Virus record (IMG/VR): IMGVR_UViG_3300022208_000278
Coordinates: 1 to 58,515 of that record
Strand: one strand, 5' to 3'
Length of the DNA: 58,515 nucleotides
Origin: a virus
Taxonomy: Duplodnaviria > Caudoviricetes
Both the position numbers and the translations under genes were made by a program. This document shows positions 3,003 through 56,440 of this stretch, piece by piece (within the stretch, counting starts at the first letter, position 1; each line of letters begins with the position of its first letter). The notes beneath the pieces are model-generated. The model did no database searches and was not told where the DNA came from. It saw nothing but the letters and a program-made list of their open reading frames with translations.

Positions 3003-3344
3003 ATGAACGATGAGACAAAACTGAATGACGAAAACCCCGCTGATGGGCGGTCTGACTCGAATGGAGGGTTAGGCGAAGTTGATTTTTATAATTATCTTCG
3101 AGAAGAAATAACTGATTTAGATAGCGCCAAAATGTTCATGTGGAAATGGGTGAACGAAATGGATCAGGAACTCCCCAAATTTGGCTCGATAAGCTCAAGA
3201 GCGCTGTGCGCCCACGTTAGCGCGATATTGGAAGGAAAGGAACAAGACGATTCAGGGGGTGATGGATATACTCAATACCTGAATACAAAGTATGGGCCTG
3301 AACTCTACTATTCAGCGTGGGGAGGGCGGCCTAACGTGATATAG
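3003..3344 (+). CDS. cassette hypothetical protein with attC-encoded leader; stop supplied by attI-like site
   Basis: GGAG + ATG inside attC 2952-3074; ends PNVI* in AACGTGATATAG. Confidence 0.7.
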   Translation: MNDETKLNDENPADGRSDSNGGLGEVDFYNYLREEITDLDSAKMFMWKWVNEMDQELPKFGSISSRALCAHVSAILEGKEQDDSGGDGYTQYLNTKYGPELYYSAWGGRPNVI

Positions 3345-3394
3345 ACACCTTTGCAGGTGTATAACACCCTGCGAAGGCAGTTTTACACCTAAAG
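3329..3394 (-). other. attI-like recombination site A
   Basis: - strand reads ...GGTGTAAAAC...GGTGTTATACACCTGCAAAGGTGTCTATATCACG|TTAGGC; near-identical copies at 6141-6206 and 40125-40190. Confidence 0.7.
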
Positions 3395-3406
3395 GAGAAA
3401 AATAAA

Positions 3407-3437
3407 TTGACAAAACATTAATTTGCTTTAACATAAT
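3407..3437 (+). promoter_or_regulatory. sigma70-like promoter upstream of Q-like gene
   Basis: TTGACA 3407-3412; TAACAT (16-nt spacer) or CATAAT. Confidence 0.45.
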
Positions 3438-3455
3438 GACCCACAACGAAGCGGA

Positions 3456-3989
3456 TTGGTTGGATACAATTTAAAAGATGGGGACGAATTGCGAATATCA
3501 ATTAAATCTTATTCACAGGCAGTAAACTCGTCGAATTTAATTGATAATACAATTAAGCAAGATACGGCGATATTGGCCGCTGTAGCTCTATCATCAGAGC
3601 TTGGGTCAATGCTATTCCGGGCTAAATATGCTGGAGACGAGCACAGCGTCATGATGCTCATGGATGCGTGGCGAATAAAAGTCTCTGCGGTGGCAAAAAA
3701 ACGCAGATTTTTGGAAAAGGCAAATGAGGTTGCTGATACGTCCTTGCGATATTGGCTGCAAGGCGTATGCCGAGTATGTGATGGTCGAACTGCACCGAAA
3801 ATTGATAACACACCAATGCTGGCCGATCTTGTGTGCCCAGCGTGCGGTGGGAGCGGGCAAGCCAGATTAAAGTGCGATGAGAGCATAAAAGATCATGTTC
3901 GTGATGCAATCGAAACGCTAAACCAAATGGAACGCGAGGCAGGCGGCGCAGCGATCAGGAAATTGTCGGATGATGTGCGTGCGGTATAA
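3456..3989 (+). CDS. antitermination protein Q-like (Zn finger CRVCDG...CPACGGSG); start may be TTG 3489
   Basis: Size and paired CxxCxG motifs typical of lambdoid Q antiterminators. Confidence 0.6.
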   Translation: MVGYNLKDGDELRISIKSYSQAVNSSNLIDNTIKQDTAILAAVALSSELGSMLFRAKYAGDEHSVMMLMDAWRIKVSAVAKKRRFLEKANEVADTSLRYWLQGVCRVCDGRTAPKIDNTPMLADLVCPACGGSGQARLKCDESIKDHVRDAIETLNQMEREAGGAAIRKLSDDVRAV

Positions 3990-3998
3990 ATTTACAAA

Positions 3999-4085
3999 GG
4001 AAGATGCCGCTAGGTTGGCTGGCAAGCGGTTTTGAAAACCGTGGTGTCCGAAAGGGTAAGGGTTCGACTCCTTCATCTTCCGCCA
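3999..4085 (+). tRNA. tRNA-Ser (anticodon TGA)
   Basis: Acceptor GGAAGAT/ATCTTCC, discriminator G + CCA, anticodon arm GCGGT-TTTGAAA-ACCGT, long variable arm, GGTTCGACTCC T-arm. Confidence 0.9.
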
Positions 4086-4126
4086 TTATTACCATTATTA
4101 AACGCCACAGGCAGCTTGACCGTAAA

Positions 4127-4265
4127 GTTAGGGGTGAAAGTGGTGGGGATTATTAAAGCGCATCCAAGCGCAAGTGTTCCGGGAGGCATACCGGGTAGTG
4201 CAGGCCGTTCGACACGGCGGCACGGCATGTTGGATATAGTAGTCCTCACCACTTTCGCCACTAAC
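4127..4265. ncRNA. ORF-less cassette, candidate structured RNA
   Basis: 23-bp terminal inverted complement (3 mismatches); internal GCCG-TTCGACA-CGGC T-loop-like hairpin; no RBS/ATG-led ORF filling the cassette. Confidence 0.35.
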
Positions 4266-4326
4266 GTAGAGCTAACCGGCAGGCCGCTTGGATGCCGTGT
4301 TAGGCACGACCAAACAGGAGAACGAA

Positions 4327-4635
4327 ATGAAATTGCTGGACATGGTTTCCGCTCTATCAAAAGCAGGTGTTGCTACAACAGTGCGCGGTGTAGGGGAAAC
4401 ATTGATAGCCGAGTTTGAGGATGGGTTTTATAAATCAGACGGAATGGCGCACCTACGCGAAGAAAACGGGCGACTGTATCTAAACGCCAGATATGGCGAG
4501 AAGAAAGAGGTTTTAGGGATTGATGACGTTATCAAATGCTCTAAAGAATGGCACGAATTCAGCCACGATAGATTCGATGGATGGGAAACACCGCCAGCAC
4601 ATTGGGCCGCGCTGTATGAGACGTTGAGTGCCTAA
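4327..4635 (+). CDS. cassette hypothetical protein
   Basis: AGGAG RBS; TAA in GCCTAAC box. Confidence 0.8.
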   Translation: MKLLDMVSALSKAGVATTVRGVGETLIAEFEDGFYKSDGMAHLREENGRLYLNARYGEKKEVLGIDDVIKCSKEWHEFSHDRFDGWETPPAHWAALYETLSA

Positions 4636-4658
4636 CGTGGAATTAAGCGGGCGCGAAA

Positions 4659-4868
4659 ATGACCTCTGATAAAACCAGCCACGCTGAACGCGCTCCGCTT
4701 GAATGTAGGGTTATGCCTCTGCCACTTGGAACGCAAACCCAATGGGGAAAAATTGAAATGGTCGGCATCACTGGAGGCGAACGGTACTACTGGATGCTCG
4801 ACAAACATAAATGCGTGTCCATGATTCCTGCCTTCATGGTAGAACAGGGGCATAACGACAAAGCTTAG
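4659..4868 (+). CDS. cassette hypothetical protein with attC-encoded leader
   Basis: ATG within attC 4630-4716. Confidence 0.65.
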   Translation: MTSDKTSHAERAPLECRVMPLPLGTQTQWGKIEMVGITGGERYYWMLDKHKCVSMIPAFMVEQGHNDKA

Positions 4869-4938
4869 GGGCGACGCCGTAGGCGGCGTCCCACTAGAGC
4901 GGCGGGTTGTGCGCCGCCGTTCAACGGAGATAAACACG

Positions 4939-5226
4939 ATGAAGCGATACCGAACACCGAAGGCGAAACCCGGCGAACTGCTGGTGAAGTACGGGCAGGA
5001 ACATGGAGACCGTGACCTGTACTTTTGCTACGGGGCTGGCGGGGCAACAAGACGAGATTCAAATGTCGTGATGATGGCTTTCAATAGCGAACTGAAACTT
5101 GGGAATGGGAATTCACTCGTTAAAGAACTAGAGGCTCGTGGATACGACATCACAACGCTGAAATTCACGGTGCAATTGAAGGCGCACAACGTGAAGCTAA
5201 GAGACAGGCCGACCGAAAAACTTTAA
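4939..5226 (+). CDS. cassette phage hypothetical protein (...SLVKELEARGYDITTLKFTV)
   Basis: acGGAGa RBS; reads into next attC. Confidence 0.75.
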   Translation: MKRYRTPKAKPGELLVKYGQEHGDRDLYFCYGAGGATRRDSNVVMMAFNSELKLGNGNSLVKELEARGYDITTLKFTVQLKAHNVKLRDRPTEKL

Positions 5227-5240
5227 AGGAGAAATGAACC

Positions 5241-5498
5241 ATGAACACACGCAACTTTGGAAAGAAATCACTTATCGGCCTGTCCCTCTTGAGCGTAGGG
5301 TTAGTGGGTTGCGAACTTGCATCACCGTGGCAAGGTGCAGGTGCTCTTTACATTTACGATCATGGTGTTTCGCGTTGTGTAAATGTTAAAGAGGTAGCTT
5401 TCAATGCGTCTCGATCTACAGATTATATTGATCTTGATGGTATCCAATATTTGGCGCGTGAACCTGTGGCATATTACGCTGGTGAGAAATGCAAATGA
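5241..5498 (+). CDS. cassette lipoprotein; signal peptide encoded by attC
   Basis: MNTRNFGKK-SLIGLSLLSVG-LVGC lipobox; residues 1-22 lie in attC 5184-5306. Confidence 0.65.
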   Translation: MNTRNFGKKSLIGLSLLSVGLVGCELASPWQGAGALYIYDHGVSRCVNVKEVAFNASRSTDYIDLDGIQYLAREPVAYYAGEKCK

Positions 5499-5553
5499 AT
5501 ACCCCTAACGGGGAGCTAAGGGGCTGCGCGCATCACGAAACTTTGAAGGAGCG

Positions 5554-5901
5554 ATGAGCATGGAATCAGCGAACGAAACTGGAAAGAACCCCGCTGGCGC
5601 GCAGTCCGGTGGAGCCGAAGGCGGAACGAACTTGAGCGGATGGTTAGCCGCCGAGAAGCAGCAGGAAGCGGAATGGGACAATTTTTGGCGCGAGCGCGAA
5701 CTAGAAGAACGAGAGCTTTTTGAGCAGAGCTACCGCCGCCACAAACTGAACCGGCATCATGGCGGAACAGGAGAATATGAGCATCGCTACGTCGAGCATT
5801 GTTGGCATGGCTGGATGGATAGGGCATTCGTGATCTACACAGAGGCGGCTAACGTGCAAGTTCAGCGGGACGCCGCTTTTGGCGGCTCCGCTGGAACGTA
5901 G
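5554..5901 (+). CDS. cassette hypothetical protein with attC leader and tail
   Basis: AAGGAG + ATG inside attC 5503-5649; tail identical to that of 1691-1990. Confidence 0.7.
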   Translation: MSMESANETGKNPAGAQSGGAEGGTNLSGWLAAEKQQEAEWDNFWRERELEERELFEQSYRRHKLNRHHGGTGEYEHRYVEHCWHGWMDRAFVIYTEAANVQVQRDAAFGGSAGT

Positions 5902-5934
5902 GGTTGTGCGTCAATCAAACTATGGAGAATAAAA

Positions 5935-6156
5935 ATGTGCGTAATAGTCATGGTCGGAGATATTGAGTGTAGTACAAAAGCAGAACTGAGAAATGCTATC
6001 GGAATTGAACCGGAGCGCAGAAAGAAAGATTACAAAACATTTGAGGACGGAGATTGTCTTTGTCCATGCGATCTTGAGAAAACAGCAAAGCTCGCAAATA
6101 TGACTTTGAGCGGCGATTCTTGGGATGTGCAGATTTTGACGCACAACGTGATATAG
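5935..6156 (+). CDS. cassette hypothetical protein (DCLCPCD)
   Basis: GGAG RBS; ends HNVI* in attI-like site. Confidence 0.75.
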   Translation: MCVIVMVGDIECSTKAELRNAIGIEPERRKKDYKTFEDGDCLCPCDLEKTAKLANMTLSGDSWDVQILTHNVI

Positions 6157-6206
6157 GCACATTTGCAGGTGTATAACACCCAACGAAGGCAGTTTTACAC
6201 CTAAAG
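6141..6206 (-). other. attI-like recombination site B
   Basis: AACGTGATATAGGCACATTTGCAGGTGTATAACACCC...TTTTACACCTAAAG, near-identical to sites A and C. Confidence 0.7.
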
Positions 6207-6321
6207 ACAATAGGATTGAATTTTGAATCTGAAAAAAAACAGTAGCTAGTCAATATCTCAAAGTGGAATAGTTCGGGTGTTAAGGTTCATGCCAAGCTGA
6301 ATATCAAGATGATGAAGAGTC

Positions 6322-6579
6322 TCATTTCCTAGGGAGCATCCTACGCTCTTTCTCGTTGATTATTCTTGATTCTGTGATTTTTATTCTGATACAAACAAGC
6401 CAGTAAATAATTAGCACAAATGATAATAACGCACCCATAGCCGAGGCTAGCTTCCCAATGTCATTGGGTATCCATTCAAGCACCGTGCTGAGTCCAGATG
6501 CCGCCGTCGCGCTACCCAATGCTATCGCCGTCTTTGGGCTTGTAGCCATTCCTGCTAGTACGCTTTTTAAGTCTGTCAT
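6322..6579 (-). CDS. small membrane protein (holin-like)
   Basis: Two hydrophobic segments, basic C-terminus, end of lysis cluster. Confidence 0.55.
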   Translation of the reverse strand: MTDLKSVLAGMATSPKTAIALGSATAASGLSTVLEWIPNDIGKLASAMGALLSFVLIIYWLVCIRIKITESRIINEKERRMLPRK

Positions 6580-7040
6580 GTTTGTGTTTCGCTTCTAGGT
6601 AAAGATGAATTGCTTTCGCTATTATGACTATCGAGGTCAACACCCCGCCGACCCATTGCAATATTTCCATAGCTCTTGTCCTTCCCCGACATGATGTAAA
6701 TGGTGTAGATGTACAGCGAAGCGAAAGCATAATTATAGTAAATTGGCGAAAGGTAAAGCATGTAGATGACCCACCCAAAGATATTCAAAACGATTGCGCC
6801 AATACAAATCCGAATCAAAATCAAGATAAAATCTGTGATTTCCGATAGCGCGACCAATGTGAAAATGATCCACAAATGCAAAAACATATCTGAAAAGTAA
6901 TAATTAATATCACTAAAATAATCAGACAGTAAGTTATGTACCAGCGTTAAAGATGCAAAGCAAATCGCCGCCAAAGCTCTTTCTTGCGTCGGCTGAAAGA
7001 GCGCGACGAACACTAGTACGATAACTAGAAAATCAATCAT
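6576..7040 (-). CDS. multi-pass membrane protein
   Basis: 4-5 hydrophobic helices; coupled to downstream ORF. Confidence 0.65.
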   Translation of the reverse strand: MIDFLVIVLVFVALFQPTQERALAAICFASLTLVHNLLSDYFSDINYYFSDMFLHLWIIFTLVALSEITDFILILIRICIGAIVLNIFGWVIYMLYLSPIYYNYAFASLYIYTIYIMSGKDKSYGNIAMGRRGVDLDSHNSESNSSLPRSETQT

Positions 7041-7120
7041 TTTTTAGGTTTAGGCCATTTAGATTTATCATCACGCTTACGACCTTTACCACCGAAAAGT
7101 TTGTGCATTGCATTTCTCCT

Positions 7121-7525
7121 TTATTTATTTACTTCTATTGCGTCAATGTTTAGTTGGTCGGCTCGCTTGATAATCCTTCCAACTCTTTCTGCATGATTTC
7201 CGTAGATTTCATCAGTTCTTTCTGAAAGTAACCTACTTCCTCCGTCTTTATCTGCTTCCTTGGCAGATTTACAGATCGGGAAGTGGACGCGCACCCGGCC
7301 AGCAGCAGCAATGGCAAGGCTATCAATAATACCTTGGTTAGTGTCATGCTCCTCCCCTTTCCTTACCAATTCGTTTGCGTACTCAAGAACCACATTTTTA
7401 TTTTCCTCTGAATCAGCAGATTTCTGCGCGTTCCATTGGCTTTGTACATACATCATACCACTCTTTACGCCAGCGCCAAATAGGGCTATTACAAGGGCGG
7501 CATACACGTATAAGCGCGGGGTCAT
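7121..7525 (-). CDS. i-spanin (Rz-like)
   Basis: N-terminal TM anchor plus helical periplasmic region, downstream of endolysin/holin, hosts an embedded lipoprotein ORF. Confidence 0.65.
   Translation of the reverse strand: MTPRLYVYAALVIALFGAGVKSGMMYVQSQWNAQKSADSEENKNVVLEYANELVRKGEEHDTNQGIIDSLAIAAAGRVRVHFPICKSAKEADKDGGSRLLSERTDEIYGNHAERVGRIIKRADQLNIDAIEVNK
7150..7347 (-). CDS. o-spanin (Rz1-like lipoprotein) embedded in Rz
   Basis: LLLLAGC lipobox in alternate frame within the i-spanin gene. Confidence 0.6.
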   Translation of the reverse strand: MTLTKVLLIALPLLLLAGCASTSRSVNLPRKQIKTEEVGYFQKELMKSTEIMQKELEGLSSEPTN

Positions 7526-7749
7526 CCCTCATACTCCGAATTTTCATAATGTGACATCGGCTTATGCGTGTTATTACGCAGCCAATAGGTGATTAATCCG
7601 CCTAATATTATAGCGCCAGTGTAAACCCATTTTGGTAAATCTGGCATTAATTCAGGCGTAACAAATACAAGAACTGATCCAATTGATCCTAGAATCATTT
7701 GGACGTGACCCCAGTTTATCGTTTTACTCTTTGTGGTTAGTATCTTCAT
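7522..7749 (-). CDS. putative holin (2 TM)
   Basis: MKILTTKSKTINWG...; ATG overlaps endolysin stop. Confidence 0.6.
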   Translation of the reverse strand: MKILTTKSKTINWGHVQMILGSIGSVLVFVTPELMPDLPKWVYTGAIILGGLITYWLRNNTHKPMSHYENSEYEG

Positions 7750-8216
7750 CGTATCCTCTCCGGTATAGTTTTTTGGCCATTCAATGCAGGTGCTAACGGT
7801 GGCTTCATTGATGGGATGTAGATACGATGCCCCGATTTCGGAGGTATAGATTGAAAATGACACCACCCTGGAGTCCATCTAAAATCTTCGCAATACAACC
7901 CATTTCTGTCCAGCTCGTCCTGATTATTCACACACCATTGAGCCAAGATTCTTTCTGGGTCGTAAATATCTATTCCCAAGCCTGATTTGTGAGCCGATGA
8001 CGGTGCGCCAGTATTTGAATTGTACGCCCTGTATCCACCATCACCTGAGCCACCTTTCGCCCCTGAGATTTGCGTATCCGTGTCGGGATCAATCCAGTAT
8101 TTATAGGCATCAGATTTGCTGAGTAAAGTATTTACCTTACCCAATAAATTTCGGGCATTCAGAACGTGTACATCCCGCCTGTCTTTATCTTGGAAATACT
8201 GGTCTATAGTAATCAT
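7746..8216 (-). CDS. endolysin, peptidase M15 family
   Basis: SAH-x6-D (SAHKSGLGIDI) and WCHFQ zinc-ligand motifs. Confidence 0.8.
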   Translation of the reverse strand: MITIDQYFQDKDRRDVHVLNARNLLGKVNTLLSKSDAYKYWIDPDTDTQISGAKGGSGDGGYRAYNSNTGAPSSAHKSGLGIDIYDPERILAQWCVNNQDELDRNGLYCEDFRWTPGWCHFQSIPPKSGHRIYIPSMKPPLAPALNGQKTIPERIR

Positions 8217-8253
8217 TTCTTATTCCATGCGGGGTTATTTTATTTTCTATAAG

Positions 8254-8967
8254 TTAAATACTTAAATTGCTTCGTATCGCAATCACATTGTTTCCCCATA
8301 TTGCCATTGCAGTATTTACATCTGCAATAACTGCTGCTTGCCGTATTATAGCTTTTGTATCAAGGCGCTTTTTGCGTAGATCAATTTTAGCGGTATTCAG
8401 TGCAAGTGCAAGTGCTAAGATGTTATCTGTTGCTTGCTGAGGGGTTGAGGCACTACCACGGTCTACCTCATCTTGAATAATGCTTGGCACAATTCCTGTA
8501 TATCCAGCATCGCGGTACAGTATGGCTTCTTTTTCTGCTAGAAGGTAATCAGGTACTCTCTGCCCAACCGCATCAAGGTATATTGCATCAACATCAGAAT
8601 CTACTTTACGAATGGCCTTATCCTTCGCTTTGGCTAAGTTGAGGGCTATTGTTTCAGCGGGTAATGCAACTATTACTCTGGTGAATGTTGTATTACCTGC
8701 TGTGAAGTTTATGACACCTGTATCCTCATGCGTAGTTGAGTCGAATGCAGGGGTGGCATCTATAGCCTCATAGAATCCAGCCTCTTGCTGCACAGCAACA
8801 TTCAGCCCGACAAATCTTATGTTTTTAGAGTTATCATTCAGATATTTATTGCACGCGCTGATAACCGCATCGGTCGCTAATTCCGGGTATAGTATTTCGC
8901 CGTCGCTAGATACAATCATCCCAAGTGCCTGCAAGCCGCTCAAATTAACCAACTCTGAAATGTTCAT
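8254..8967 (-). CDS. tail fibre assembly/chaperone-like protein
   Basis: Follows tail fibre gene; helical C-terminus typical of fibre chaperones. Confidence 0.55.
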   Translation of the reverse strand: MNISELVNLSGLQALGMIVSSDGEILYPELATDAVISACNKYLNDNSKNIRFVGLNVAVQQEAGFYEAIDATPAFDSTTHEDTGVINFTAGNTTFTRVIVALPAETIALNLAKAKDKAIRKVDSDVDAIYLDAVGQRVPDYLLAEKEAILYRDAGYTGIVPSIIQDEVDRGSASTPQQATDNILALALALNTAKIDLRKKRLDTKAIIRQAAVIADVNTAMAIWGNNVIAIRSNLSI

Positions 8968-8977
8968 ATTGTATGTC

Positions 8978-11299
8978 CTATAATTTATTAAATAGCGCGG
9001 ATGCCATCAGTGATGGGGGCACCTCAGCCTGCGAATACTCTTGGATGTAATGCCAACTAGTTTGATTAGACTGAGAGTATGGGACTAGATATATTCTGTT
9101 CTGCGTTGGAGAGTAAACACCACCACGATACCCGTTCGTAACTACAGTTGCTCCGTGAGTGTAAGCTACGACTGTGCCAGTTGCGCAATCAATGTAGTGC
9201 CAACTCGTTTGATTAGACTGTGCTAATGGGACTAGATATATTCTGTTCTGTGTTGGAGAGTAAACACCACCAATATACCCGTTCGTAACTACAGTTGCTC
9301 CGTGGGTATAAGCTACGACTGTGCCAGTTGCGCAATCAATGTAGTGCCAACTCGTTTGATTAGACTGTGCTAATGGGACTAGATATATTCTGTTCTGAAT
9401 CGGGGAATAAACACCACCATAATACCCGGTCGCAACTACAGTTGCTCCGTGAGTGTAAGCTACGACTGTGCCAGTTGCGCAATCAATGTAGTGCCAACTC
9501 GTTTGATTAGACTGAGAGTATGGGACTAGATATATTCTGTTCTGCGTTGGAGAGTAAACACCACCATAATACCCGGACGCAATTACAGTTGCTCCGTGGG
9601 TATAAGCTACGACTGTGCCAGTTGCGCAATCAATGTAGTGCCAACTCGTTTGATTAGACTGAGAGTATGGGACTAGATATATTCTGTTCTGTGTTGGAGA
9701 GTAAACACCACCAGCATACCCGGTCGCAACTACAGTTGCTCCGTGAGTGTAAGCTACGACTGTGCCAGTTGCGCAATCAATGTAGTGCCAACTCGTCTGG
9801 TTAGACTGAAAGTATGGGACTAGATATATTCTGTTCTGTGTCGGGGAATAAACACCACCAGCATACCCGGACGTAATTACAGTTGCTCCGTGGGTATAAG
9901 CTACGACTGTGCCAGTTGTGCAATCAATGTAGTGCCAACTCGTCTGGTTAGACTGTGCTAATGGGACTAGATATATTCTGTTCTGTGTTGGAGAGTAAAC
10001 ACCACCAATATACCCGTTCGCAACTACAGTTGCTCCGTTCAAATACGAGCCTACGCCGAATCCTATATTTATATTTTTCGAGTGTATCCGTGATAGGTAT
10101 GAGACAAGGTTGGGTATACTTATCGTATCCATCCTGACGGACGGGAATGGCGCGGTTAGTATGTTTGTTGCGCTGGTGAGCGTTTTATTGGTTAGCGCCT
10201 CGGCTCCCGTGGGAGTTGTTAGGTCAGTCCCCAGCGTGAGTTCGGCAGCCATACCACCCGCATCAAACCCTGCGACCTTAAGCGCTGTTCCGGTATGCCC
10301 AGAGCCAGACCATGCCAGATCGGTCAAGTTGGGGTGGCTTGTCGGTGCCAAGGCGGTAGGTGCGGAGCTTCCGATAACAGGGCGCAAATCGGAGATGGTC
10401 GAGGGCGAAGTAGCGCCATTCAAGAATGTGATTTTTGCAATCACCATCCCGTGTTCCATGTATTCCTCTGGACGATTTGTCGGGGTGGCTTCAGCCAGCG
10501 CTTCGGCTTCCGTTGCGTATTGAGCGCGTCCGTATTGAACTACGACATCCCCCAAGTAACCCTGTATCACGTAATGATTGCTGTACCACCCAACGGTCGT
10601 TGCTGTGAGCACGCCAGCATTGTCGTATTGGGTATTGTCCCATTGAGTTTGAGCGGCTACATAGGTGTATGTGCCTGTCCCATAAATAGCTGTGAACGTG
10701 CCACCAGCGTTGGAATCGAACAGGCTTATATGTTCCTGATCCATGCTTCTGGACACTTCAATCGTCCCAGCGGTTATGGCTATTTTCCTCGATGGTGCTG
10801 ATGGGTCATAAGTCACCAGCCCCGCAGAAACTCTATCCCCGATTGTTCTCTGCGCCCATCCCTGCGCACGATTTACAAAGTCTCCGATTGGCCGTGCATC
10901 CGGGTGAATCTTGAGCACCCCTCCCCGGTTGTGAACCTCTCCCAAATAGATCAGGTCGTACCCGTTCGAGGTGTCTGTCGGGTTGAATGCGATGTTCGGT
11001 GCGCCAGAATTCCAACTCCCTATCAAGTACCTTGTGGTGTCAGTAGGAATCGCCACGCCAGTCAATCCGGCGACAGTATTCTCGTAGTAAATCGAGGATG
11101 TTGCCGTAGATCCTGAGCGTATGATGAATTCTCCAACAGCGACGTTTACCGTCGCGCCGCCAGCATCGGTAATCCCGAAGCCCTCGATCCAGCCTGACGA
11201 GCTTAAATCTTTCCACAGGCTGCGCAGGGTCGCGGTGGTTCCGGTTGAGTGGACTAGCAGCGTGCCATCAGACCGACCTCCATCTCTCCATGCTGACAT
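8978..11299 (-). CDS. tail fibre / receptor-binding protein with 7x49-aa repeat domain
   Basis: Gly/Thr-rich beta structure, LTNKTL fibre motif, C-terminal tandem repeats. Confidence 0.7.
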   Translation of the reverse strand: MSAWRDGGRSDGTLLVHSTGTTATLRSLWKDLSSSGWIEGFGITDAGGATVNVAVGEFIIRSGSTATSSIYYENTVAGLTGVAIPTDTTRYLIGSWNSGAPNIAFNPTDTSNGYDLIYLGEVHNRGGVLKIHPDARPIGDFVNRAQGWAQRTIGDRVSAGLVTYDPSAPSRKIAITAGTIEVSRSMDQEHISLFDSNAGGTFTAIYGTGTYTYVAAQTQWDNTQYDNAGVLTATTVGWYSNHYVIQGYLGDVVVQYGRAQYATEAEALAEATPTNRPEEYMEHGMVIAKITFLNGATSPSTISDLRPVIGSSAPTALAPTSHPNLTDLAWSGSGHTGTALKVAGFDAGGMAAELTLGTDLTTPTGAEALTNKTLTSATNILTAPFPSVRMDTISIPNLVSYLSRIHSKNINIGFGVGSYLNGATVVANGYIGGVYSPTQNRIYLVPLAQSNQTSWHYIDCTTGTVVAYTHGATVITSGYAGGVYSPTQNRIYLVPYFQSNQTSWHYIDCATGTVVAYTHGATVVATGYAGGVYSPTQNRIYLVPYSQSNQTSWHYIDCATGTVVAYTHGATVIASGYYGGVYSPTQNRIYLVPYSQSNQTSWHYIDCATGTVVAYTHGATVVATGYYGGVYSPIQNRIYLVPLAQSNQTSWHYIDCATGTVVAYTHGATVVTNGYIGGVYSPTQNRIYLVPLAQSNQTSWHYIDCATGTVVAYTHGATVVTNGYRGGVYSPTQNRIYLVPYSQSNQTSWHYIQEYSQAEVPPSLMASALFNKL
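9044..10036 (-). repeat. 7 tandem 147-bp coding repeats
   Basis: GATV...GGVYSPTQNRIYLVP..QSNQTSWHYIDC.TGTVVAYTH, period 147 bp. Confidence 0.95.
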
Positions 11300-11377
11300 T
11301 ATGCACCTCCAATATAGATAACAGCAGTTGATTTAGCAATATTTTCGGTTTGCGCCATGATTTAATTCCTTTGCTGG

Positions 11378-11884
11378 TTAAAGCGTTGGTTGGTATACGT
11401 TCAAGTGGCCTGATATTCTTATCGCCTGCCCTGAAATATTTGTTGCCCGAAATAAAAAGTTCTTTGTTTTGTCTAAAAGAAACTCAGAAGTAAATTCATC
11501 CAGTGATCCTCCTGTGGCATTCCCGCCATTCCCGCCTGTCACATAAGCAACCCCATTTATCGCATTCCCTGTCGCGGTTACTGTTGGCGTGTGGGTGGCT
11601 GTTCCAGAAAATACATTCGATGAGGATGTGTTGTGGTTGCTCATCGTTACGCCAGTTCCAGCCGCTGAAACAGTTGGGCTTTCAAATATGGTAACAGTGA
11701 ATTCTGCACTAGCATTAAACTTCAATGTAAGATGCGTGTTATGCAGCCCACTTCCTTGTAAATAAAGATCAAGCGTTCCATTGTTCGCAAGGGCGGGATT
11801 ATAATATCCCCCGGAAAAATACTTCCCGCGATGAACCATGCTATGAACGACATCTATTGTCGTCTGTAAATTCCATGCTGGCAT
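11378..11884 (-). CDS. virion-associated hypothetical protein
   Basis: 168-aa beta-rich ORF in late operon. Confidence 0.65.
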   Translation of the reverse strand: MPAWNLQTTIDVVHSMVHRGKYFSGGYYNPALANNGTLDLYLQGSGLHNTHLTLKFNASAEFTVTIFESPTVSAAGTGVTMSNHNTSSSNVFSGTATHTPTVTATGNAINGVAYVTGGNGGNATGGSLDEFTSEFLLDKTKNFLFRATNISGQAIRISGHLNVYQPTL

Positions 11885-11936
11885 ATCTAATCCCTTGTGT
11901 TGTTAGCTGATTGTACTACAGAACGTTTGTTCTTTG

Positions 11937-46720: not shown

Positions 46721-46909
46721 ACTGGTGATAATCCTCTCGATGTCGCTGGGTTTTAACTGCATTTTCCATTTCTCTTTCCACTCTTCATGCCACTTTATTA
46801 TTTTACCTGTTACGCTATTCCTTATCACAACAGAAACGCACCCGCTAATTTTGTAATGGTACAAAACACCATTTACAACTATCTCTTTCCGTCCTTTTTT
46901 GGGCAGCAT
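46715..46909 (-). CDS. cassette hypothetical protein
   Basis: RBS GGAGG comes from the attC spacer; ATG 1 nt after R box; TAA in attI R box. Confidence 0.7.
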   Translation of the reverse strand: MLPKKGRKEIVVNGVLYHYKISGCVSVVIRNSVTGKIIKWHEEWKEKWKMQLKPSDIERIITSA

Positions 46910-46924
46910 TGCCTAACCCTCCAT

Positions 46925-47188: not shown

Positions 47189-47309
47189 AGTATTCTCCGT
47201 TGAAAAAGCCGCCCAACCCTACGTTCGAGCGCACGGGCAACGGCGGGACAGGTTCTCTAGTTTTGCTCATGGTTTCTCCTCGCGCCGTTCCCCGGCGCTC
47301 AACTTTGCG

Positions 47310-48329
47310 TTATGCCCCATACATCACCATTTGCGCGCTGGCACTTTCTACCCGCTGCCGCGCCATTTCAAAGTTTTTCGGGCATTTCTCAACCCCGATA
47401 AATCGCCTCCCTGTTTCATGGCAGGCATGGCCTAAACTACCCCCACCCATGAACGGATCAAAAACCAAATCCCCCGCCCTTGTGCTGGAGTAAAGGATGT
47501 GCCGCAAAAGTGCCTGCGGCTTCTCGCATGGGTGCTTCCCCGCATAAGCCATTACAGGCTCAAAGTCCCAAACATCACCCCATTGGTCTTTTGCAGTCAC
47601 ATTGAACGGCCTGCGCAGCTCTTCGTACTCGCGGCGCAGCTCTTCGTACTCGCGGCGCAGTTCTTCATACTCGCGCGTCAAAAACCCTGATCCGAGTGTG
47701 TGTTGCATTGACTCATAATCAGCAGCAGAGATTAGGTTCTTTCCAAGCTCCCAGTTAAATATGTTGGCGTTCGCGCTGTCTTCGTTTTTGTAGCCCACAA
47801 GTTTCTTCGCTACATCGCGGCGGCTGATTCCTGCGCGTTCGCGCTCAAGCTGGATATAGCGGCCTAGTGGCGCGTACACCTCTTTATGCAAAGCCTTCGA
47901 TGCGTCACCGTATTGATCGCCCCGCTGCTCCGCAAATATAACCCGCTCAGTCACCGCAATCCAAGAGCGCAGGGCTTCTTTCTCGGCCTTCTGCGCCCAT
48001 CCAACAACATCGCGTCCTTTACCGCCCTTGCGCCACACGATTGAACTCAGCACGTTAAAACGCTTCCCGATCTCGCATTCAACGCGCGCCGCCATTTGTG
48101 GCGAGGCGAAAAAGTACAGGCTCCCGTTCGGCTTGAGGATGCGCTGGAACTGTTCGCAAAGCTTGCCAACCCACTCAATAAAATGGTTCGCGTCATCCCA
48201 TTGGTTATCCCAATCTTCGCCCTTCACACGGAAGTATGGGGGGTCGGTTATGATTGCACTTATGCTATGAGATTCCATATCCTTCATTACAGCCATACAA
48301 TCCGCATTGTAGAGTGCGACACTATTCAT
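47310..48329 (-). CDS. DNA amino-methyltransferase (N6A/N4C, beta class) with HTH-like insertion
   Basis: DPPY motif; HPCEKP; VFDPFMGGGS SAM-binding motif. Confidence 0.9.
   Translation of the reverse strand: MNSVALYNADCMAVMKDMESHSISAIITDPPYFRVKGEDWDNQWDDANHFIEWVGKLCEQFQRILKPNGSLYFFASPQMAARVECEIGKRFNVLSSIVWRKGGKGRDVVGWAQKAEKEALRSWIAVTERVIFAEQRGDQYGDASKALHKEVYAPLGRYIQLERERAGISRRDVAKKLVGYKNEDSANANIFNWELGKNLISAADYESMQHTLGSGFLTREYEELRREYEELRREYEELRRPFNVTAKDQWGDVWDFEPVMAYAGKHPCEKPQALLRHILYSSTRAGDLVFDPFMGGGSLGHACHETGRRFIGVEKCPKNFEMARQRVESASAQMVMYGA
47613..47675 (-). repeat. 3x21-bp coding repeat (REYEELR)
   Basis: Direct inspection. Confidence 0.9.
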
Positions 48330-51023: not shown

Positions 51024-51060
51024 GATAGGCACCTTTGCCGGGGCCTATATCATGTTAGGC
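51024..51060 (+). other. attI-like recombination site E (core only)
   Basis: GCCTATATCATGTT identical to core of site C. Confidence 0.65.
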
Positions 51061-51061
51061 C

Positions 51062-51625
51062 TCATGATTGCTTCTCCCGTGCTTTCAGCATTTCATCGGC
51101 TTGCCGGTAGGCAAATTGAGCGCGCAATTCGTATGTGTCAAAGTCGGTGTCTTCGCAAGCGACGATTGACTGCATCGCCTTTGCCGCGAAGTAATCGCGC
51201 AAGCTCATCCCCTCGCTTGGCGCTCCGCCACCGCCACTGAACGTATATGAATGCCCACTGTTAGGGAACGCCGGGCCGCCGTTGTTGGTTTCGCTCATGT
51301 TCATTTCCTTTCCGGGCCTGAGGCCCAACCCTGCATTCGAGCGCGACGGCCCAAAAGCGGGCCGCGCCTCAATTTGAATGTTAGAGCGCTCTTTGAGTCT
51401 GCGCACCCAATACGCCACGGCTTTGTTCCACATAGCCACGTCCCGCTCGATCCCTCTGTCGTCGCCAGTATCCTCCGCTGCCTCGCATGCCTTCACGCAC
51501 GCCTCACGCTCTGCATCAACGGCGCGGCGCGCAACTTCCTTGGCATAGTCGCCGTACAGGCCATCCGACAGCCCGCCCATTTGCCATTCTCGCTCAACGT
51601 CGTCACATATCTTTTGCAAGTCCAT
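51062..51625 (-). CDS. two cassette ORFs fused in frame through an attC; distal part (start 51304) is the GMSLRDYFAAKAMQ phage family
   Basis: ORF crosses attC 51323-51386 without a stop; internal AAGGA + ATG. Confidence 0.7.
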   Translation of the reverse strand: MDLQKICDDVEREWQMGGLSDGLYGDYAKEVARRAVDAEREACVKACEAAEDTGDDRGIERDVAMWNKAVAYWVRRLKERSNIQIEARPAFGPSRSNAGLGLRPGKEMNMSETNNGGPAFPNSGHSYTFSGGGGAPSEGMSLRDYFAAKAMQSIVACEDTDFDTYELRAQFAYRQADEMLKAREKQS

Positions 51626-51691
51626 ATCGTTCTCCGTAGTTACCAGCGCTCTAACCCATCATTCCACCGGACAGCTTCGCTGCCGGTGAAT

Positions 51692-52054
51692 TCAGGCGTT
51701 AGCCGCCGCAAATGGGATCAGCTTCAAATCGTAGCCATCCACATGCCCTGATTCCCAATCGTGGGTCTCGTTGCACACAATTACCTCGTAAATCCCATCC
51801 CCGCACTCGTCGAGGTTGAGTATGCTATTCACAGCATCCGCCGCGCCGATTGCACCAGCATCTTCCTCAAGCACATTAAATCCAGTGCATTTCCTGCGCA
51901 AAAATGTGATGCTTTTCTTTGTATGCAGCCCGCGCCTGTCTGCCCATATTGTTGTGGTAATTTTAACAACGCATACGTTTTTTGGAGCGTCGGCGGCTAA
52001 CCCTGCGGTCAAGTCCGACAAACAAAAGCGGGGTTGAGTTTGTGTGTTATTCAT
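51692..52054 (-). CDS. cassette hypothetical protein with attC-encoded leader
   Basis: ATG in attC 51995-52098. Confidence 0.7.
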   Translation of the reverse strand: MNNTQTQPRFCLSDLTAGLAADAPKNVCVVKITTTIWADRRGLHTKKSITFLRRKCTGFNVLEEDAGAIGAADAVNSILNLDECGDGIYEVIVCNETHDWESGHVDGYDLKLIPFAAANA

Positions 52055-52313
52055 AGTTTTGTAGCCGCTTTTGTTTGCGGCTTACCTCCATGTTAGCCGC
52101 CTGTATGCTTTCCACTCTCTTAATTGCGCTGTCCAAGTTGACTATAGGGGTTGACCACTCATCGCAACCGTATGTTGATTTCCCACTAAACCCAGTGTGC
52201 ATTAGCATTTCGCGGATGTCGCGCAATCTCCAAAGAACGTCGGCTAACCCGTCATTCAAGCGGGGATGCCCCTCTGCGCGGCTTTTATCATTCAGTTCAG
52301 TTTCATCATTCAT
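52047..52313 (-). CDS. cassette hypothetical protein with attC leader and tail
   Basis: Leader MNDETELND resembles that of 3003-3344. Confidence 0.65.
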   Translation of the reverse strand: MNDETELNDKSRAEGHPRLNDGLADVLWRLRDIREMLMHTGFSGKSTYGCDEWSTPIVNLDSAIKRVESIQAANMEVSRKQKRLQNYE

Positions 52314-52320
52314 TTCTTTG

Positions 52321-52581
52321 TTATCCTTTCTCTATGGGGCAGCCCCTTACTTCGGAGTTGGTGGTCTTATTGCACTCCGGGCATGGAAGCCCTCTCTTTG
52401 CCGCTGTCACGCTCGGCAGTGAAATCCATCCTGATTCGTGCCCGCACTTGGCGCACACCATTGCCACAACCTGTTCGCCATCTTCGTGTTCGCCACAATT
52501 GCCATTCGCGCAGTCAACAACGTGCATCATCCATTCGCGCTGCTTTCTCGGCTTCTCGAACATTTCCAGTGTGCGTGCCAT
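52321..52581 (-). CDS. Zn-ribbon protein at distal junction of array E
   Basis: CAKCGHESGW...CPECN; GGAG RBS; tail read into attC. Confidence 0.7.
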   Translation of the reverse strand: MARTLEMFEKPRKQREWMMHVVDCANGNCGEHEDGEQVVAMVCAKCGHESGWISLPSVTAAKRGLPCPECNKTTNSEVRGCPIEKG

Positions 52582-53389: not shown

Positions 53390-53473
53390 ATTCTGCCATA
53401 ACTTATTGCACAAAGTCAATAGCTAAATCAAATAAATATTTTCCTTGCCTATGCAATAAGTTTTTGCTATGAT
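53390..53473. promoter_or_regulatory. divergent promoter pair with shared operator
   Basis: + strand TTGCCT-17-TATGAT; - strand TTGACT-18-CAGAAT; TGCAATAAGTT present in both spacers (53400-53410 and 53452-53462, inverted). Confidence 0.65.
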
Positions 53474-53480
53474 GTGCGGC

Positions 53481-53669
53481 ATGAATAAATTTAAATTGAT
53501 TGCCCATTTAGGCGGTAACTGCGCTAAAGCCGCAAGCCGACTCGGTTATACACATCGCAACAATATACAGCGGTTGTCTAACCCGCTGACTGATCGCCAA
53601 GTTAAGACAATTGTCATGCGCATGAAAGCGAAGCGAATACCAATACCTAAAGCGTTATATGATGAATGA
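53481..53669 (+). CDS. Cro-like HTH regulator
   Basis: LIAHLGGNCAKAASRLGYTHRNNI HTH; first gene after divergent promoters. Confidence 0.65.
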   Translation: MNKFKLIAHLGGNCAKAASRLGYTHRNNIQRLSNPLTDRQVKTIVMRMKAKRIPIPKALYDE

Positions 53670-53865
53670 TTTTCTGTCATGTTTTTATAGGGTGATTTAA
53701 TCATAATCGCCAATAAGTCTGGCATTTGGCAGGGACTCGACACCCTGAATACACAAGCCCTAGTGTTCCAGATGCCAGTCTTATTGGTGATCCTAAAAAG
53801 GAGGAATGCCGTCGCGCTAAAGCGCGCCCCTCTTGAATGATGGGTTAGAGAACAGGAGAAACAAC

Positions 53866-54057
53866 GTGGCGAAAAAAGAGATAAAGATCATTGAGGGAGA
53901 TGTAAGGCACGATGTGTTTGGTAGTTGGAGCGACTGCTCTCCCGGCCTATACATTGACACCGATATGGTGGAGTCCATTTTCAATTCATACAAAGGCAGG
54001 AGGGTTAGAGTGACAATCGAAGTAATAGAACCTGTTCTGGACGATGGTGATGAGTGA
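53866..54057 (+). CDS. cassette hypothetical protein
   Basis: AGGAG + GTG start. Confidence 0.65.
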   Translation: MAKKEIKIIEGDVRHDVFGSWSDCSPGLYIDTDMVESIFNSYKGRRVRVTIEVIEPVLDDGDE

Positions 54058-54159
54058 TGTTCTCTAACGCAAAGGTAACAGGCTCGCCTTCGGCGAGTCC
54101 AGCGGAGTGAAACGGAGCGGTGTTGACCGTTAGGTTATGCTGTTTTATTGGAGACGAAG

Positions 54160-54624
54160 ATGAAAGCTACTGTATGGACTTCTTACGGAAGAAACAACGA
54201 AAAGCCCAAGTGTATTTTTAATGGAGAAATAAAGTCAGTGCCAAGAGATGGCGAGTTAATCGTAGCCCGTGATGGATTTTGCTCGGAGCGAGTAATCGAG
54301 GTTACGCACGATCTTGTAACCGGAGAGGTCGAAATAAAAATTGCAGGCGGAGACCCAGATAGCGAATACGGAGATTGCAGAGTTAGCAGCCTACTCTTAA
54401 CGAAGCGCGGTACTTTGAAAGGAAACATCATGCAACCTCACCAGCAACGTGTAGTAGATGAAAAAACAGAACTCGACGTGAAGGCCCACGCACTTAGCCA
54501 ATTTATTGGTCATAGCCCGATATTTGAAACGCTCGATGCAGCGGAACAAGAACGGTTGAAGGAGCAGAACGACGTTATGTGGCAATACTCTGAGATTCTC
54601 GGAGCGAGAATTGCTGCATTTTAA
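54160..54624 (+). CDS. fusion of two cassette ORFs; distal part (ATG 54430, MQPHQQRVVDEKTEL...) is crAss001_48-like
   Basis: attC remnant at 54372-54388 inside the ORF; internal AAGGA + ATG. Confidence 0.7.
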   Translation: MKATVWTSYGRNNEKPKCIFNGEIKSVPRDGELIVARDGFCSERVIEVTHDLVTGEVEIKIAGGDPDSEYGDCRVSSLLLTKRGTLKGNIMQPHQQRVVDEKTELDVKAHALSQFIGHSPIFETLDAAEQERLKEQNDVMWQYSEILGARIAAF

Positions 54625-54769
54625 ATAGTGAAGCTTCCTGTCAGCTCGAAGGCGGCTAACAAGTAGTGAATGGGCTGCGGCGCTGACACTTTGAACAAGA
54701 AAGAAACACTTATTACCGCAGTCCCGCTTGCACGTAGGGTTGGGCGGCTTTTTCAACGGAGATATAGCT

Positions 54770-55006
54770 ATGAACACAATACCAGAAAAACATCTTGAGT
54801 TTTGCAGGGCGGTTGCCGCGCTTGCTGCTGACGCAGGAATAAACCAAGCATCTCTAACCTACCACCCCGGAATTCATGACGAATGGAGAGATGAGATACG
54901 GATGCAATGGGAAAGCGGCAGGCACGGCGAAGATTCTAGGCGAGTGTACATAACCAGCAATGTTCAAGTTAGAACAGAACTCAAGCCGCCCAACATTTCA
55001 AATTGA
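54770..55006 (+). CDS. cassette hypothetical protein
   Basis: acGGAGa RBS. Confidence 0.7.
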   Translation: MNTIPEKHLEFCRAVAALAADAGINQASLTYHPGIHDEWRDEIRMQWESGRHGEDSRRVYITSNVQVRTELKPPNISN

Positions 55007-55071
55007 GGCGCGGCGCGCTGTTGCGCCGTCGCTCTCGAATGCAGAGTTAGGCTCTGCGAAAGGAGATTGAA

Positions 55072-55227
55072 ATGGCATACCAATACAAAGAGGCAATGAA
55101 ACGGCATAGACGCACCGCATTTCAAAGGCGCGATGTTAAATCTGAAATTACAGTTTTCAGGATAGTTGAGCAAAAAGGATGCTGTGGGAGTTTTATTCCA
55201 AGGTACAAAACGAAGCCTAACGCCTGA
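55072..55227 (+). CDS. cassette small basic protein, 51 aa (MAYQYKEAMKRHRR...KPNA), not in ORF track
   Basis: AAGGAG RBS; manual translation. Confidence 0.6.
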   Translation: MAYQYKEAMKRHRRTAFQRRDVKSEITVFRIVEQKGCCGSFIPRYKTKPNA

Positions 55228-55297
55228 ATTTTGGGGCTGCCGAAGGCAGTCCCGCAACAATGACGGGTTATGCCCCGCCTTAACTACGGAGATTGCC

Positions 55298-55498
55298 ATG
55301 ATTGAAACTGCACCAGAAGGAATGACTAAAGAGCTTTGGCTGAAAAGATGCTCTGCACGATTGAGAGCAAAGATACCGGACATGGATATTTCCGAGAGCG
55401 ATGGAATTGCGGAGGCGTGCTTTGAAAATCTGGACAACGACCTCACAGAACACCCTGAGGACGCGGCAGACGAGGAACTGAGCTGCTGGTCTGAATGA
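55298..55498 (+). CDS. cassette acidic protein (...PEDAADEELSCW)
   Basis: acGGAGa RBS. Confidence 0.7.
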   Translation: MIETAPEGMTKELWLKRCSARLRAKIPDMDISESDGIAEACFENLDNDLTEHPEDAADEELSCWSE

Positions 55499-55592
55499 AG
55501 GGGCATAACGTAAAGGTAAGGGGCTGACGCGCTTTTGCGGCGGTCCCGCTTCACCGCCGGGTTGGGCGGCTTTTTACTACGGAGCAAAAAAC

Positions 55593-55856
55593 ATGGCAAA
55601 GAAATATCCTGCAATAGGTTGTAAAAAAGCGCCACGGAATGCTGGTGGATTGCCATGCATTATTTGCGGAGTGCCGACAACTGGAAAAGTTGACATAGAA
55701 GTAAGCTGGTTTCGTGGCGACGACAAACAGGTGCGTGTCTGCAAAACACACCAGACGAAACACGATACCGAAATACTGGCGGCATACGAGGCGGCTAACG
55801 CTGACATGAGGGGCTGCGCCACCGCCGAGCCGAACAACGAAGCGAGGAAGATATGA
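55593..55856 (+). CDS. cassette Zn-binding protein (CIICG...SWFRGDD...VCKTH)
   Basis: acGGAG RBS; tail read into attC. Confidence 0.7.
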   Translation: MAKKYPAIGCKKAPRNAGGLPCIICGVPTTGKVDIEVSWFRGDDKQVRVCKTHQTKHDTEILAAYEAANADMRGCATAEPNNEARKI

Positions 55857-56152
55857 CAACACAACAAACAAACAACGAAGCTCTGGCGCAGTCCCGCGCC
55901 AAAGGCGCAAACTCGATGGATGGGTTAGGGGCGGCAATGGAATGCAGGTCAATAGAAACGGCCCCGAGAGTCGGGACGCCTATCATCCTTCTCTACTTCG
56001 ATGGCGGGAGAGTATGTTGGGTTCGGGACGGGAAATTCGTTCCGCCTATCGGGTGGTATTCGATCAACGGCACTGGCGGGCTACATCCTACCCATTGGAT
56101 GCCGATGCCAGAAGCCCCTAACGACCATGCTCAGCCGACCGTAACCGCCTGA
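55853..56152 (+). CDS. cassette DUF551-like protein with attC-encoded leader
   Basis: SIETAP...PTHWMPMPEAP motif. Confidence 0.75.
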   Translation: MTTQQTNNEALAQSRAKGANSMDGLGAAMECRSIETAPRVGTPIILLYFDGGRVCWVRDGKFVPPIGWYSINGTGGLHPTHWMPMPEAPNDHAQPTVTA

Positions 56153-56214
56153 GAAGAACTTTAAATTTACCACAAAAGCCGGATGCGGTTACGGGTCGGC
56201 TGGAGCTATTTGTT

Positions 56215-56424
56215 ATGAGCGACACAGCAAAAACAGATAAAGAGGCTATGTGGGCCGAAAGCGGTACTGGCGAAGAATTCCAGTGCATCAGCATTGACGA
56301 AGCGAGGGAGATGGAAATAGTCTTACGCGAAGCCAGACAGATACTTGATGACTGGTGCGATGAATGCGGACATGTGGAATTGGAGATAATGCGAGACAAG
56401 ATTGATAAATATCTTGACTCATAA
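56215..56424 (+). CDS. cassette acidic protein
   Basis: ATG within R box GTTATGA, GGAG from attC L box; TAA in R box. Confidence 0.7.
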   Translation: MSDTAKTDKEAMWAESGTGEEFQCISIDEAREMEIVLREARQILDDWCDECGHVELEIMRDKIDKYLDS

Positions 56425-56440
56425 CATGATATAGGCACAC
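56419..56440 (-). other. attI-like recombination site F (core only)
   Basis: AACATGATATAGGCAC identical to core of site C. Confidence 0.65.

Follow-up and report, generated by a model that had tools for sequence, protein, structure and literature searches.

The 58,515-base stretch of DNA analysed here, which we call the window, is the complete IMG/VR record IMGVR_UViG_3300022208_000278, a provirus estimated to be ~77% complete. It is lambda-like and has genes for DnaB, an O-like replication protein, a DNA methylase, NinG, a NinB-like protein, a YqaJ-type exonuclease, SSB and the small and large terminase subunits. The + strand carries the genes of 1-6156 and 53469-58515, and the - strand those of the part in between. 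Six regions of the window contain small open reading frames (ORFs) interspersed with imperfect hairpins, which resemble integron attC sites and carry RYYYAAC at their 5' and GTTRRRY at their 3' end. Each of these six arrays is closed at its 3' end by a copy of the same short motif, and it is these end sites, A to F, and their likeness to the integron attI site that we describe here.

A covariance model, R1, was built from an alignment of 11 window hairpins alone. The consensus fold of these hairpins has 16 pairs, 10 of which show compensatory changes, as well as unpaired spacers of 5-6 nt and bulged bases on the 3' arm only. With filters off, R1 detects 43 attC-like sites in the window at E<1 (39 of them at E<=0.022), all of which lie on the coding strand and within the six arrays, with scores of up to 67 bits on the coding strand versus at most 11 bits on the reverse strands. 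The sites are 47-147 nt long and have the features expected of attC, namely an imperfect hairpin with R''/R' and L boxes, an unpaired central spacer, a variable loop and, according to the consensus fold and the strand asymmetry of R1, an extrahelical G and T on the arm opposite the AAC of the recombinogenic strand. When the 43 sequences are folded singly, the 3' arm has an excess of unpaired bases in 29. The window, with at least two attC sites and no integron integrase nearby, can also be described as containing attC clusters that have no integron integrase (CALINs). A search of Rfam gave no family match. The arrays are as follows:

214 to 3344, + strand: array I, small ORFs with 10 attC-like sites that R1 detected (214-277 to 2952-3074).
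4101 to 6156, + strand: array II, a truncated attC 3' half (4101-4139), then 6 attC-like sites (4259-4305 to 5847-5909).
46717 to 47315, - strand: array III, 2 attC-like sites (47315-47211 and 46967-46911).
40187 to 44717, - strand: array IV, 15 attC-like sites (44717-44652 to 40457-40396), downstream of the NinG and NinB-like genes.
51057 to 52326, - strand: array V, located within the early rightward operon, with 4 attC-like sites (52326-52242 to 51386-51323).
54062 to 56425, + strand: array VI, 6 attC-like sites found by R1 (54062-54140 to 55793-55930).

In array VI, an extra site at ~56118-56217 was recognised by eye and missed by R1.

The pattern AAC-N5-ATAGRC, which is the GYCTAT-N5-GTT of the original prediction read on the opposite strand, has exactly six matches on the two strands of the window, starting at 3333(+), 6145(+), 40186(-), 46716(-), 51056(-) and 56423(+). 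As the original prediction had claimed, there is one copy per array: all six are found on the coding strand at an array 3' end, directly after the last cassette ORF, and none of the six arrays lacks one. The end sites are:

3329 to 3394, + strand: end site A, with the R-type box GCCTAAC, AAC at 3333-3335, a 5-nt spacer and the L-type box ATAGAC at 3341-3346.
Outer parts of end site A, + strand: a second AAC at +30 (3363-3365), GTTTTAC (3380-3386) and a hairpin at ~3348-3378.
6141 to 6206, + strand: end site B, AAC at 6145-6147 and ATAGGC at 6153-6158; it closes array II.
40125 to 40190, - strand: end site C, AAC at 40186-40184 and ATAGGC at 40178-40173; it closes array IV and lies directly upstream of a late-type promoter.
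46685 to 46720, - strand: end site D, AAC at 46716-46714 and ATAGAC at 46708-46703; array III ends here, and a 61-aa ORF and NinG come next.
51024 to 51060, - strand: end site E, AAC at 51056-51054 and ATAGGC at 51048-51043; it closes array V.
56419 to 56440, + strand: end site F, AAC at 56423-56425 and ATAGGC at 56431-56436; it closes array VI.

The pattern has 8.5 specified positions only and random copies are present in other loci, and one might therefore ask whether the six matches are chance occurrences of a short motif. We consider this extremely improbable, as 100 dinucleotide shuffles of the window gave a mean of 0.65 and a maximum of 4 matches, so that none reached six, all six copies agree in orientation and in where they sit relative to the arrays, and the motif recurs at array ends in five other records. 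The looser pattern AAC-N5-RTAGRC returns the same six sites only (shuffle mean 1.42, 0 of 100 shuffles reaching six).

Sites A, B and C are clearly related beyond the core, with 85 nt common to A and C (94% identity), 62 nt common to A and B (94%) and 70 nt common to B and C (90%), in keeping with the ~60-80 bp predicted for them. The GGTGT-type repeats listed for these three sites are indeed present, and all three have GTATAAC at +24..30 and GTTTTAC at +47..53. Site D can be aligned with A without gaps over 36 bp, as had been claimed, with matches at 25 of the 36 positions, and E and F keep the core, agreeing with A at 14 of 17 positions. D, E and F are without the A-C repeats and have only an R-box-like heptamer that ends at +30; at this position, A, B, C and F have the triplet AAC, D has AAT and E has ATC. 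In site E, an inverted copy of the L-type box, GCCTAT, is found 12 nt downstream, after which come a 114-aa ORF, the O-like replication gene and DnaB. At site B, the + and - strand operons converge and no promoter-like site follows.

The direction in which the cassettes are coded was compared with canonical attC sites. According to the available text of PMC5027507, the integron integrase cuts between A and C of the AAC triplet on the bottom strand, the extrahelical bases are on the arm opposite AAC of that strand, and attI1 is likewise exchanged on its bottom strand. Two canonical class 1 integrons served as controls, one from R100 (In2) and one from a second plasmid with blaIMP-1 and aac(6')-IIc. 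In R100, where aadA1 is on the - strand, R1 matches the aadA1 attC on the + strand with 31.7 bits (E 8.5e-7), versus 11.2 bits on the gene strand. On the second plasmid, whose genes are also on the - strand, the attC after aac(6')-IIc is matched on the + strand with 23.9 bits. R1, although trained on phage sites alone, hence recognises two of three canonical attC sites, both on the bottom strand. As the canonical sites are matched on the strand opposite the resistance genes, the coding strand of the phage cassettes corresponds, judged by sequence, to the recombinogenic "bottom" strand, and the phage cassettes appear to be coded in the opposite sense to canonical ones. The canonical arrangement, in which the ORF is on the top, non-recombinogenic strand with attC at its 3' end, is not what we find, as 43 of 43 sites are on the coding strand. 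In addition, the loop of many of the long attC-like sites carries the Shine-Dalgarno sequence and start codon ATG of the downstream ORF (for example 2952-3074, 2218-2340, 5184-5306, 5503-5649 and 47315-47211), so that hairpin and downstream ORF form one unit and the 3' arm of the hairpin is translated. For 11 of the 43 sites, the upstream ORF stops with the TAA of ...TAA|C. The last ORF of array I (3003-3344), for instance, stops with the TAA of the R-type box of site A, and in array III the stop codon TAA of the DNA methylase sits within the first R-type box. The start codons in the loops and the TAA stops independently support the inverted polarity.

With canonical geometry and cassettes coded on the bottom strand, attI is expected at the 3' end of an array, and this is where the motif sits, as judged from the strands matched by R1, the order of elements in R100 and the rule given in the available part of PMC5027507. 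On the + strand of R100, the order is attC, cassette, AAC(14335)-N7-TAGGGC, AAC at +32 and +51, and intI1. At site A of the window, it is attC, cassette, AAC(3333)-N6-TAGAC, AAC at +30 and TAC at +51. The end sites thus resemble attI1 of In2 in an exchanged strand reading ...AA|C followed by a 6-7-nt spacer and TAGG(G)C, possibly in additional R-box-like elements at a distance of ~30 and 51 nt, on the far side from the cassettes, and in the next gene being transcribed away from the array. An R box with its AAC/GTT triplet and a degenerate inverted L box, the simple core of an attI site, is present in all of them. The architecture described for attI1 in the available text of PMC9892861 comprises L and R boxes together with the direct repeats DR1 and DR2. 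The attI1-like layout that had been predicted is therefore borne out for R box, spacer and inverted L box. The accessory repeats are kept at some sites only: GTTTTACACC recurs in two other phage records, G002 and G003, and the A-C repeats are absent from D, E and F. In contrast to attI1, the phage end sites adjoin neither an intI gene nor a Pc promoter, occur in six copies per genome instead of one, have cassette ORFs that point towards the site rather than away from it, and do not keep the accessory repeats in D, E and F.

Close relatives of the window were not found in the collections searched. Megablast of window positions 1-20000 against GenBank phages gave no match, blastn of arrays III and IV against phages gave just four weak matches, to single genes, and the best tblastn match of the large terminase subunit TerL had 61.5% identity, with mixed hosts among the matches. 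A search of genome contigs with DnaB returned chromosomal DnaB alone, at ~40% identity. The same array ends were nevertheless found in other phage records. A scan of viral contigs with TAACRTGATATAGRCMC gave seven loci with five distinct sequences, and in three of these, G001 (32 kb), G002 (9.5 kb) and G003 (7.3 kb), an R1 match lies 135-300 nt upstream on the same strand; each of these records has one copy of the motif. The site in G001 is at a convergent operon end, like B, the site in G002 follows a cro-like repressor gene and one cassette, like window site E, and the site in G003 precedes a 109-aa ORF and NinG, like window site D. G002 and G003 have TAAC-GTGAT-ATAGACACC-N12-GTTTTACACC in common, which corresponds to the pair of outer elements of A-C, the intervening hairpin being absent, and a scan with ATAGACACC-N12-GTTTTACACC returned these two records again and no others. 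The long A-C patterns had no match in viral contigs. Three loci matching a CAAC variant had no attC and were taken as chance. The seven records considered, the window and six related ones, are all incomplete (15-85% by CheckV).

Relatives of NinG were searched independently of the motif (80 loci, 0.76 Mb), and arrays were seen in G003 and in two further loci, L277 and L278, only. The latter two are 97.8% identical up to the end of the gene at the position of lambda Q and 93.8% identical again from 8 nt before AAC. Between these shared parts, L277 has at least three cassettes and L278 one different cassette, a methylase. TAAC-AAGTA-GTAGAC closes the array in each of the two, and beyond it come a palindrome that is related to the hairpin of A-C and a TTGACA promoter. 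The cassette adjoining the end site hence differs between near-identical backbones. One cassette of L277 (2590-3080) has its ORFs on the opposite strand and seemingly its own promoter region, and is similar in this to the self-expressed, reversed cassettes of bacterial integrons. As background, among the loci of TerL relatives (80 loci, 1,015,713 bases) there were no R1 matches and six motif matches attributable to chance, and among those of DnaB relatives (33 of 80 loci, 479,002 bases) there were no R1 matches. A relative without an array, L275, was considered as an empty site and rejected, as its late-promoter region differs. In L161, a low-GC metagenome contig, a methylase gene ends at 700-790 in TAAC-N5-ATAGACACC-N6-GGTGTATAAC, after which there is a dUTPase-like ORF. 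No attC is visible, but the contig begins inside the methylase gene; L161 is therefore ambiguous between an occupied site, an empty site and chance, and may represent an end site in a very different phage.

Across the 11 array ends now available, six from the window and five from other records, RYYYAAC-N5-(A/G)TAGRC is present in every case, with AAC and T9, A10, G11 and C13 invariant, whereas the flanks beyond ~17 nt are unrelated between site types. At site A, the predicted crossover is after AA of the R-type box. The bases to the left of AA|C vary like attC R boxes (GCCTAAC, GCACAAC, GCCCAAC, TCATAAC) and the right side is conserved, which is the pattern that a crossover at AA|C predicts. 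The end motif could also be a passive junction scar, left when an ancestral cassette entered a double-stranded, attG-like secondary site or when a terminal attC lost its 3' half, with the end then spread to other loci and phages by ordinary recombination; it would in that case not be a site in use. RYYYAA|C next to backbone sequence is what remains whenever an attC inserts into a double-stranded site, A, B and C are clearly paralogous, truncated attC halves do occur (4101-4139), and attG sites and the formation of CALINs by insertion into the genome have been described in the accessible text of a preprint (10.1101/2022.09.11.507474). However, as far as that text goes, attG sites have GWT alone in common, and the 11 ends share AAC-N6-TAGRC; a core of 14-17 nt is kept despite unrelated flanks, both in the four types of site within a single genome and in four further backbones, which points to selection on the core itself. 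Moreover, ATAGRC is found at the L'' position in none of the 43 attC-like sites, which sets the ends apart from random attC halves as a class of their own. We therefore think a scar improbable.

Several of the end sites are situated next to transcription signals. Three strong promoter-like sites follow them directly:

3407 to 3434, + strand: promoter-like site TTGACA-16-TAACAT, directly after site A, within the 85-nt stretch common with C.
40084 to 40112, - strand: promoter-like site TTGACA-17-TAGACT, directly after site C.
56462 to 56490, + strand: promoter-like site TTGACA-17-TAAAAT, immediately behind site F and ahead of the exonuclease/SSB module.

The promoter after site C is followed by a terminator-like hairpin at 39944-39930 (-), upstream of the terminase genes. 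This arrangement of a strong promoter-like site and, ~140 nt further on, a terminator-like hairpin before the packaging genes, at 39930-40112 (-) in the window, is also seen at 5370-5530 of L278, and resembles a late promoter under antitermination. Arrays lie directly upstream of such a late-type promoter layout in the window, L277 and L278. Sites A and C have in addition a 10-bp hairpin, CCTTYGCAGG/CCTGCGAAGG, immediately beyond the core on its 3' side (-22 to -23 kcal/mol, z -3.4 to -3.9), of which B has a degraded copy. The description of the motif as non-hairpin thus applies to the core but not to the sequence adjoining it in A and C. Similarly, the placement of the sites at the ends of operons agrees with A, B, C and F, but at D and E genes of the NinG region and of replication follow directly, so that these arrays are inside transcription units.

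These signals suggest another explanation, in which the motif is a regulatory element of the phage backbone at operon junctions, such as a terminator, a promoter upstream element or an antiterminator site, the cassettes came to lie beside it incidentally, and the arrays grow solely by attC x attC exchange. A and C each have a stable hairpin, GTTTT and then one of the best sigma-70-like sites of the region, C and the ends in L277 and L278 are each just upstream of a late-type promoter, the convergent terminus at B has kept the hairpin portion and not the promoter, and site D contains TGTATAAT. On the other hand, E, F and G001 have only the ~17-nt core in common; their flanks are unrelated, and the genes downstream differ. 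The positions that do not vary belong to the R/L core (AAC, TAGRC) and not to -35 or -10 elements, and the part to the left of AA|C varies in the manner of attC R boxes, as noted above. Furthermore, the motif is never found apart from an array in the window and appears in control loci at chance rate only, and the hairpins of A and C were not called by a terminator scan. We regard a purely regulatory role of the motif as unlikely.

The anatomy of the end sites, their polarity, their non-random placement and their conservation in other phages, with cassette turnover beside the site, are observations. Based on these, we consider it reasonably likely that the six motifs are double-stranded, attI-like core recombination sites, which dock integron-type cassettes into a lambda-like prophage. 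In this capacity the end sites would work like attI, but they are candidate rather than proven members of the attI family, as intI, the neighbour by which an attI is defined, is absent. An end site would be composed of an R-type box RYYYAAC, whose left part would be contributed by the last inserted cassette, a 5-6-nt spacer and an inverted, degenerate L-type box TAGRC; A-C, G002 and G003 have extra repeats, R-box-like or of the GGTGT type, on the flank distal to the cassettes. The cassette would have the structure [attC - ribosome site - ORF - ...TAA], the mirror image of the canonical one, and the hairpin strand that recombines, with AAC on the 5' arm and the extra G and T on the 3' arm, would be the coding strand. 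An IntI-type tyrosine recombinase, presumably supplied in trans by the host or by the missing part of the prophage, would bind the R/L core of the end site as well as the attC that a free cassette folds from its coding strand. One strand would then be exchanged between A and C of AAC and the junction resolved by replication; single-strand exchange with replicative resolution is established for canonical integrons in the part of PMC5027507 available, and we assume that it would also apply to the phage. The cassette would thereby be added to the array at its 3' end, with the hairpin preceding the ORF, and the new genes would be transcribed by read-through from upstream phage promoters. The end site, rather than attC x attC exchange, would be the main point of entry.

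The idea that the sites are insertion platforms is consistent with their position, which fits attI geometry, with the same end motif in five other records and with the different cassettes in L277 and L278. Several results weigh against it. PF00589, the tyrosine recombinase family, has no match in the window (77% complete), nor in the six related records, one of which is 85% complete, and a canonical attI adjoins its intI. There was no clean empty site among the relatives examined. L277 and L278 have no cassette in common, so that insertion of the newest cassette next to the site is not demonstrated, and their left junctions differ by ~58 nt, for which a simple AA|C model does not account. The 60-85 nt that A-C have in common are possibly a module of terminator-like hairpin and promoter instead of integrase-binding repeats, and the +30/+51 parallel with attI1 was noticed post hoc. 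R1 scores the blaIMP-1 attC weakly on both strands, and the single-sequence folds have no excess of unpaired bases on the 3' arm in 5 of 43 sites and the reverse in 9. Finally, the one sequencing run found to contain the window (X1), which is possibly its source and hence not independent, gave no usable evidence of cassette excision or of alternative cassettes; contig joints and loose ends in this run are mostly attributable to cross-mapping of the window's repeated attC sites and of the copies A, B and C. The summed contig depth in X1 over three attC-like sites in 54684-55267 is 166 versus ~35 elsewhere in the phage, which we did not use as support; probably the same attC types occur in other DNA of the sample.

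More tentatively, one might speculate that several lambda-like lineages carry what could be called 'mirror integrons', in which attI-like docking sites lie where modules meet (after cro and ahead of NinG, the late promoter and the recombination module) and an integron integrase provided in trans inserts and reshuffles cassettes from a phage-specific pool, coded on the recombinogenic strand. We see this wider scheme as possible rather than probable. The integrase could be an SOS-induced host IntI that is expressed at prophage induction. If so, the phage would gain an exchangeable library of accessory genes without encoding a recombinase or a Pc promoter.

Integrons are viewed as bacterial elements, in which one attI lies beside one intI and the cassettes are coded on the non-recombined strand. 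Here, there are six arrays with the opposite coding polarity and an attI-like core that recurs in unrelated phage backbones, with no integrase in view. If the sites are active, phages can use an integrase acting in trans to gather accessory genes, and to exchange them, at defined junctions between modules, which would provide a concrete mechanism for the variable 'moron' and nin regions of lambdoid phages and would give integron cassette traffic a phage-to-phage route. The sites would also be a defined set of sequences with which to ask what makes a minimal attI.

Clusters of attC sites without integrase have been reported in phages by Qi et al. (2023), whose survey, in the portion of the article available, lists 17 small CALINs overall (PMC9892861). 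The arrays described here resemble these, as far as the same text describes them, in the RYYYAAC/GTTRRRY boxes, the unpaired spacer, the bulged G and T, the lengths of 47-147 nt, the lack of an integrase and the presence of a DNA methylase among the cassettes, as in L278. They differ in that ~43 sites in six arrays are present in one prophage, that the ORFs are on the recombinogenic strand with starts in the attC loops, and that each array is closed by a conserved site. Integron integrases also insert cassettes at genomic attG sites, giving rise to CALINs; in the accessible text of the preprint, attG has a GWT consensus only and no shared flanks (10.1101/2022.09.11.507474). Like attG, the phage end sites would be double-stranded targets outside a classical integron, and attG accounts for cassettes and small CALINs away from intI, but the phage ends do not conform to attG as described there, as they keep a 14-17-nt core with an inverted L-type box. 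In the literature searched (supplementary files excluded), we found nothing on array-closing attI-like sites that recur across phage backbones, nor on bottom-strand-coded cassettes or start codons in attC loops.

With regard to the cassettes themselves, 20 of the ~47 ORFs were compared with Pfam, of which 18 had no match, one matched DUF7352 and one had a weak match to DUF551 below the cut-off. DNA repeats among the cassettes of the window are confined to the attC sites, and there are no duplicated ORFs. The attC-like sites 5241-5306 and 43555-43483 are 89% identical and encode the same N-terminus, which looks like a lipoprotein signal peptide (...LVGC), and the mature parts of the two proteins differ. 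In array V, a 187-aa ORF (51625-51062, -), residues 49-186 of which match phrog_2201, runs straight through the attC-like site 51386-51323; since the R-type box has its TAA in a different frame, the ORF appears to be a fusion of two cassettes. The truncated attC 3' half at the start of array II is directly preceded by a tRNA-Ser(TGA) (3999-4139 region), which suggests that a module consisting of site A, its promoter, a 177-aa zinc-finger-like ORF and the tRNA has split an older array. Outside the arrays, the virion module contains a single ORF of 3221 aa at 11937-21602 (-). Six tandem 147-nt repeats are present at 9045-10079 inside a 773-aa ORF and a run of GGTGTT hexamers at 24280-24387 inside a 471-aa ORF, and both ORFs probably code for repetitive tail or fibre proteins.

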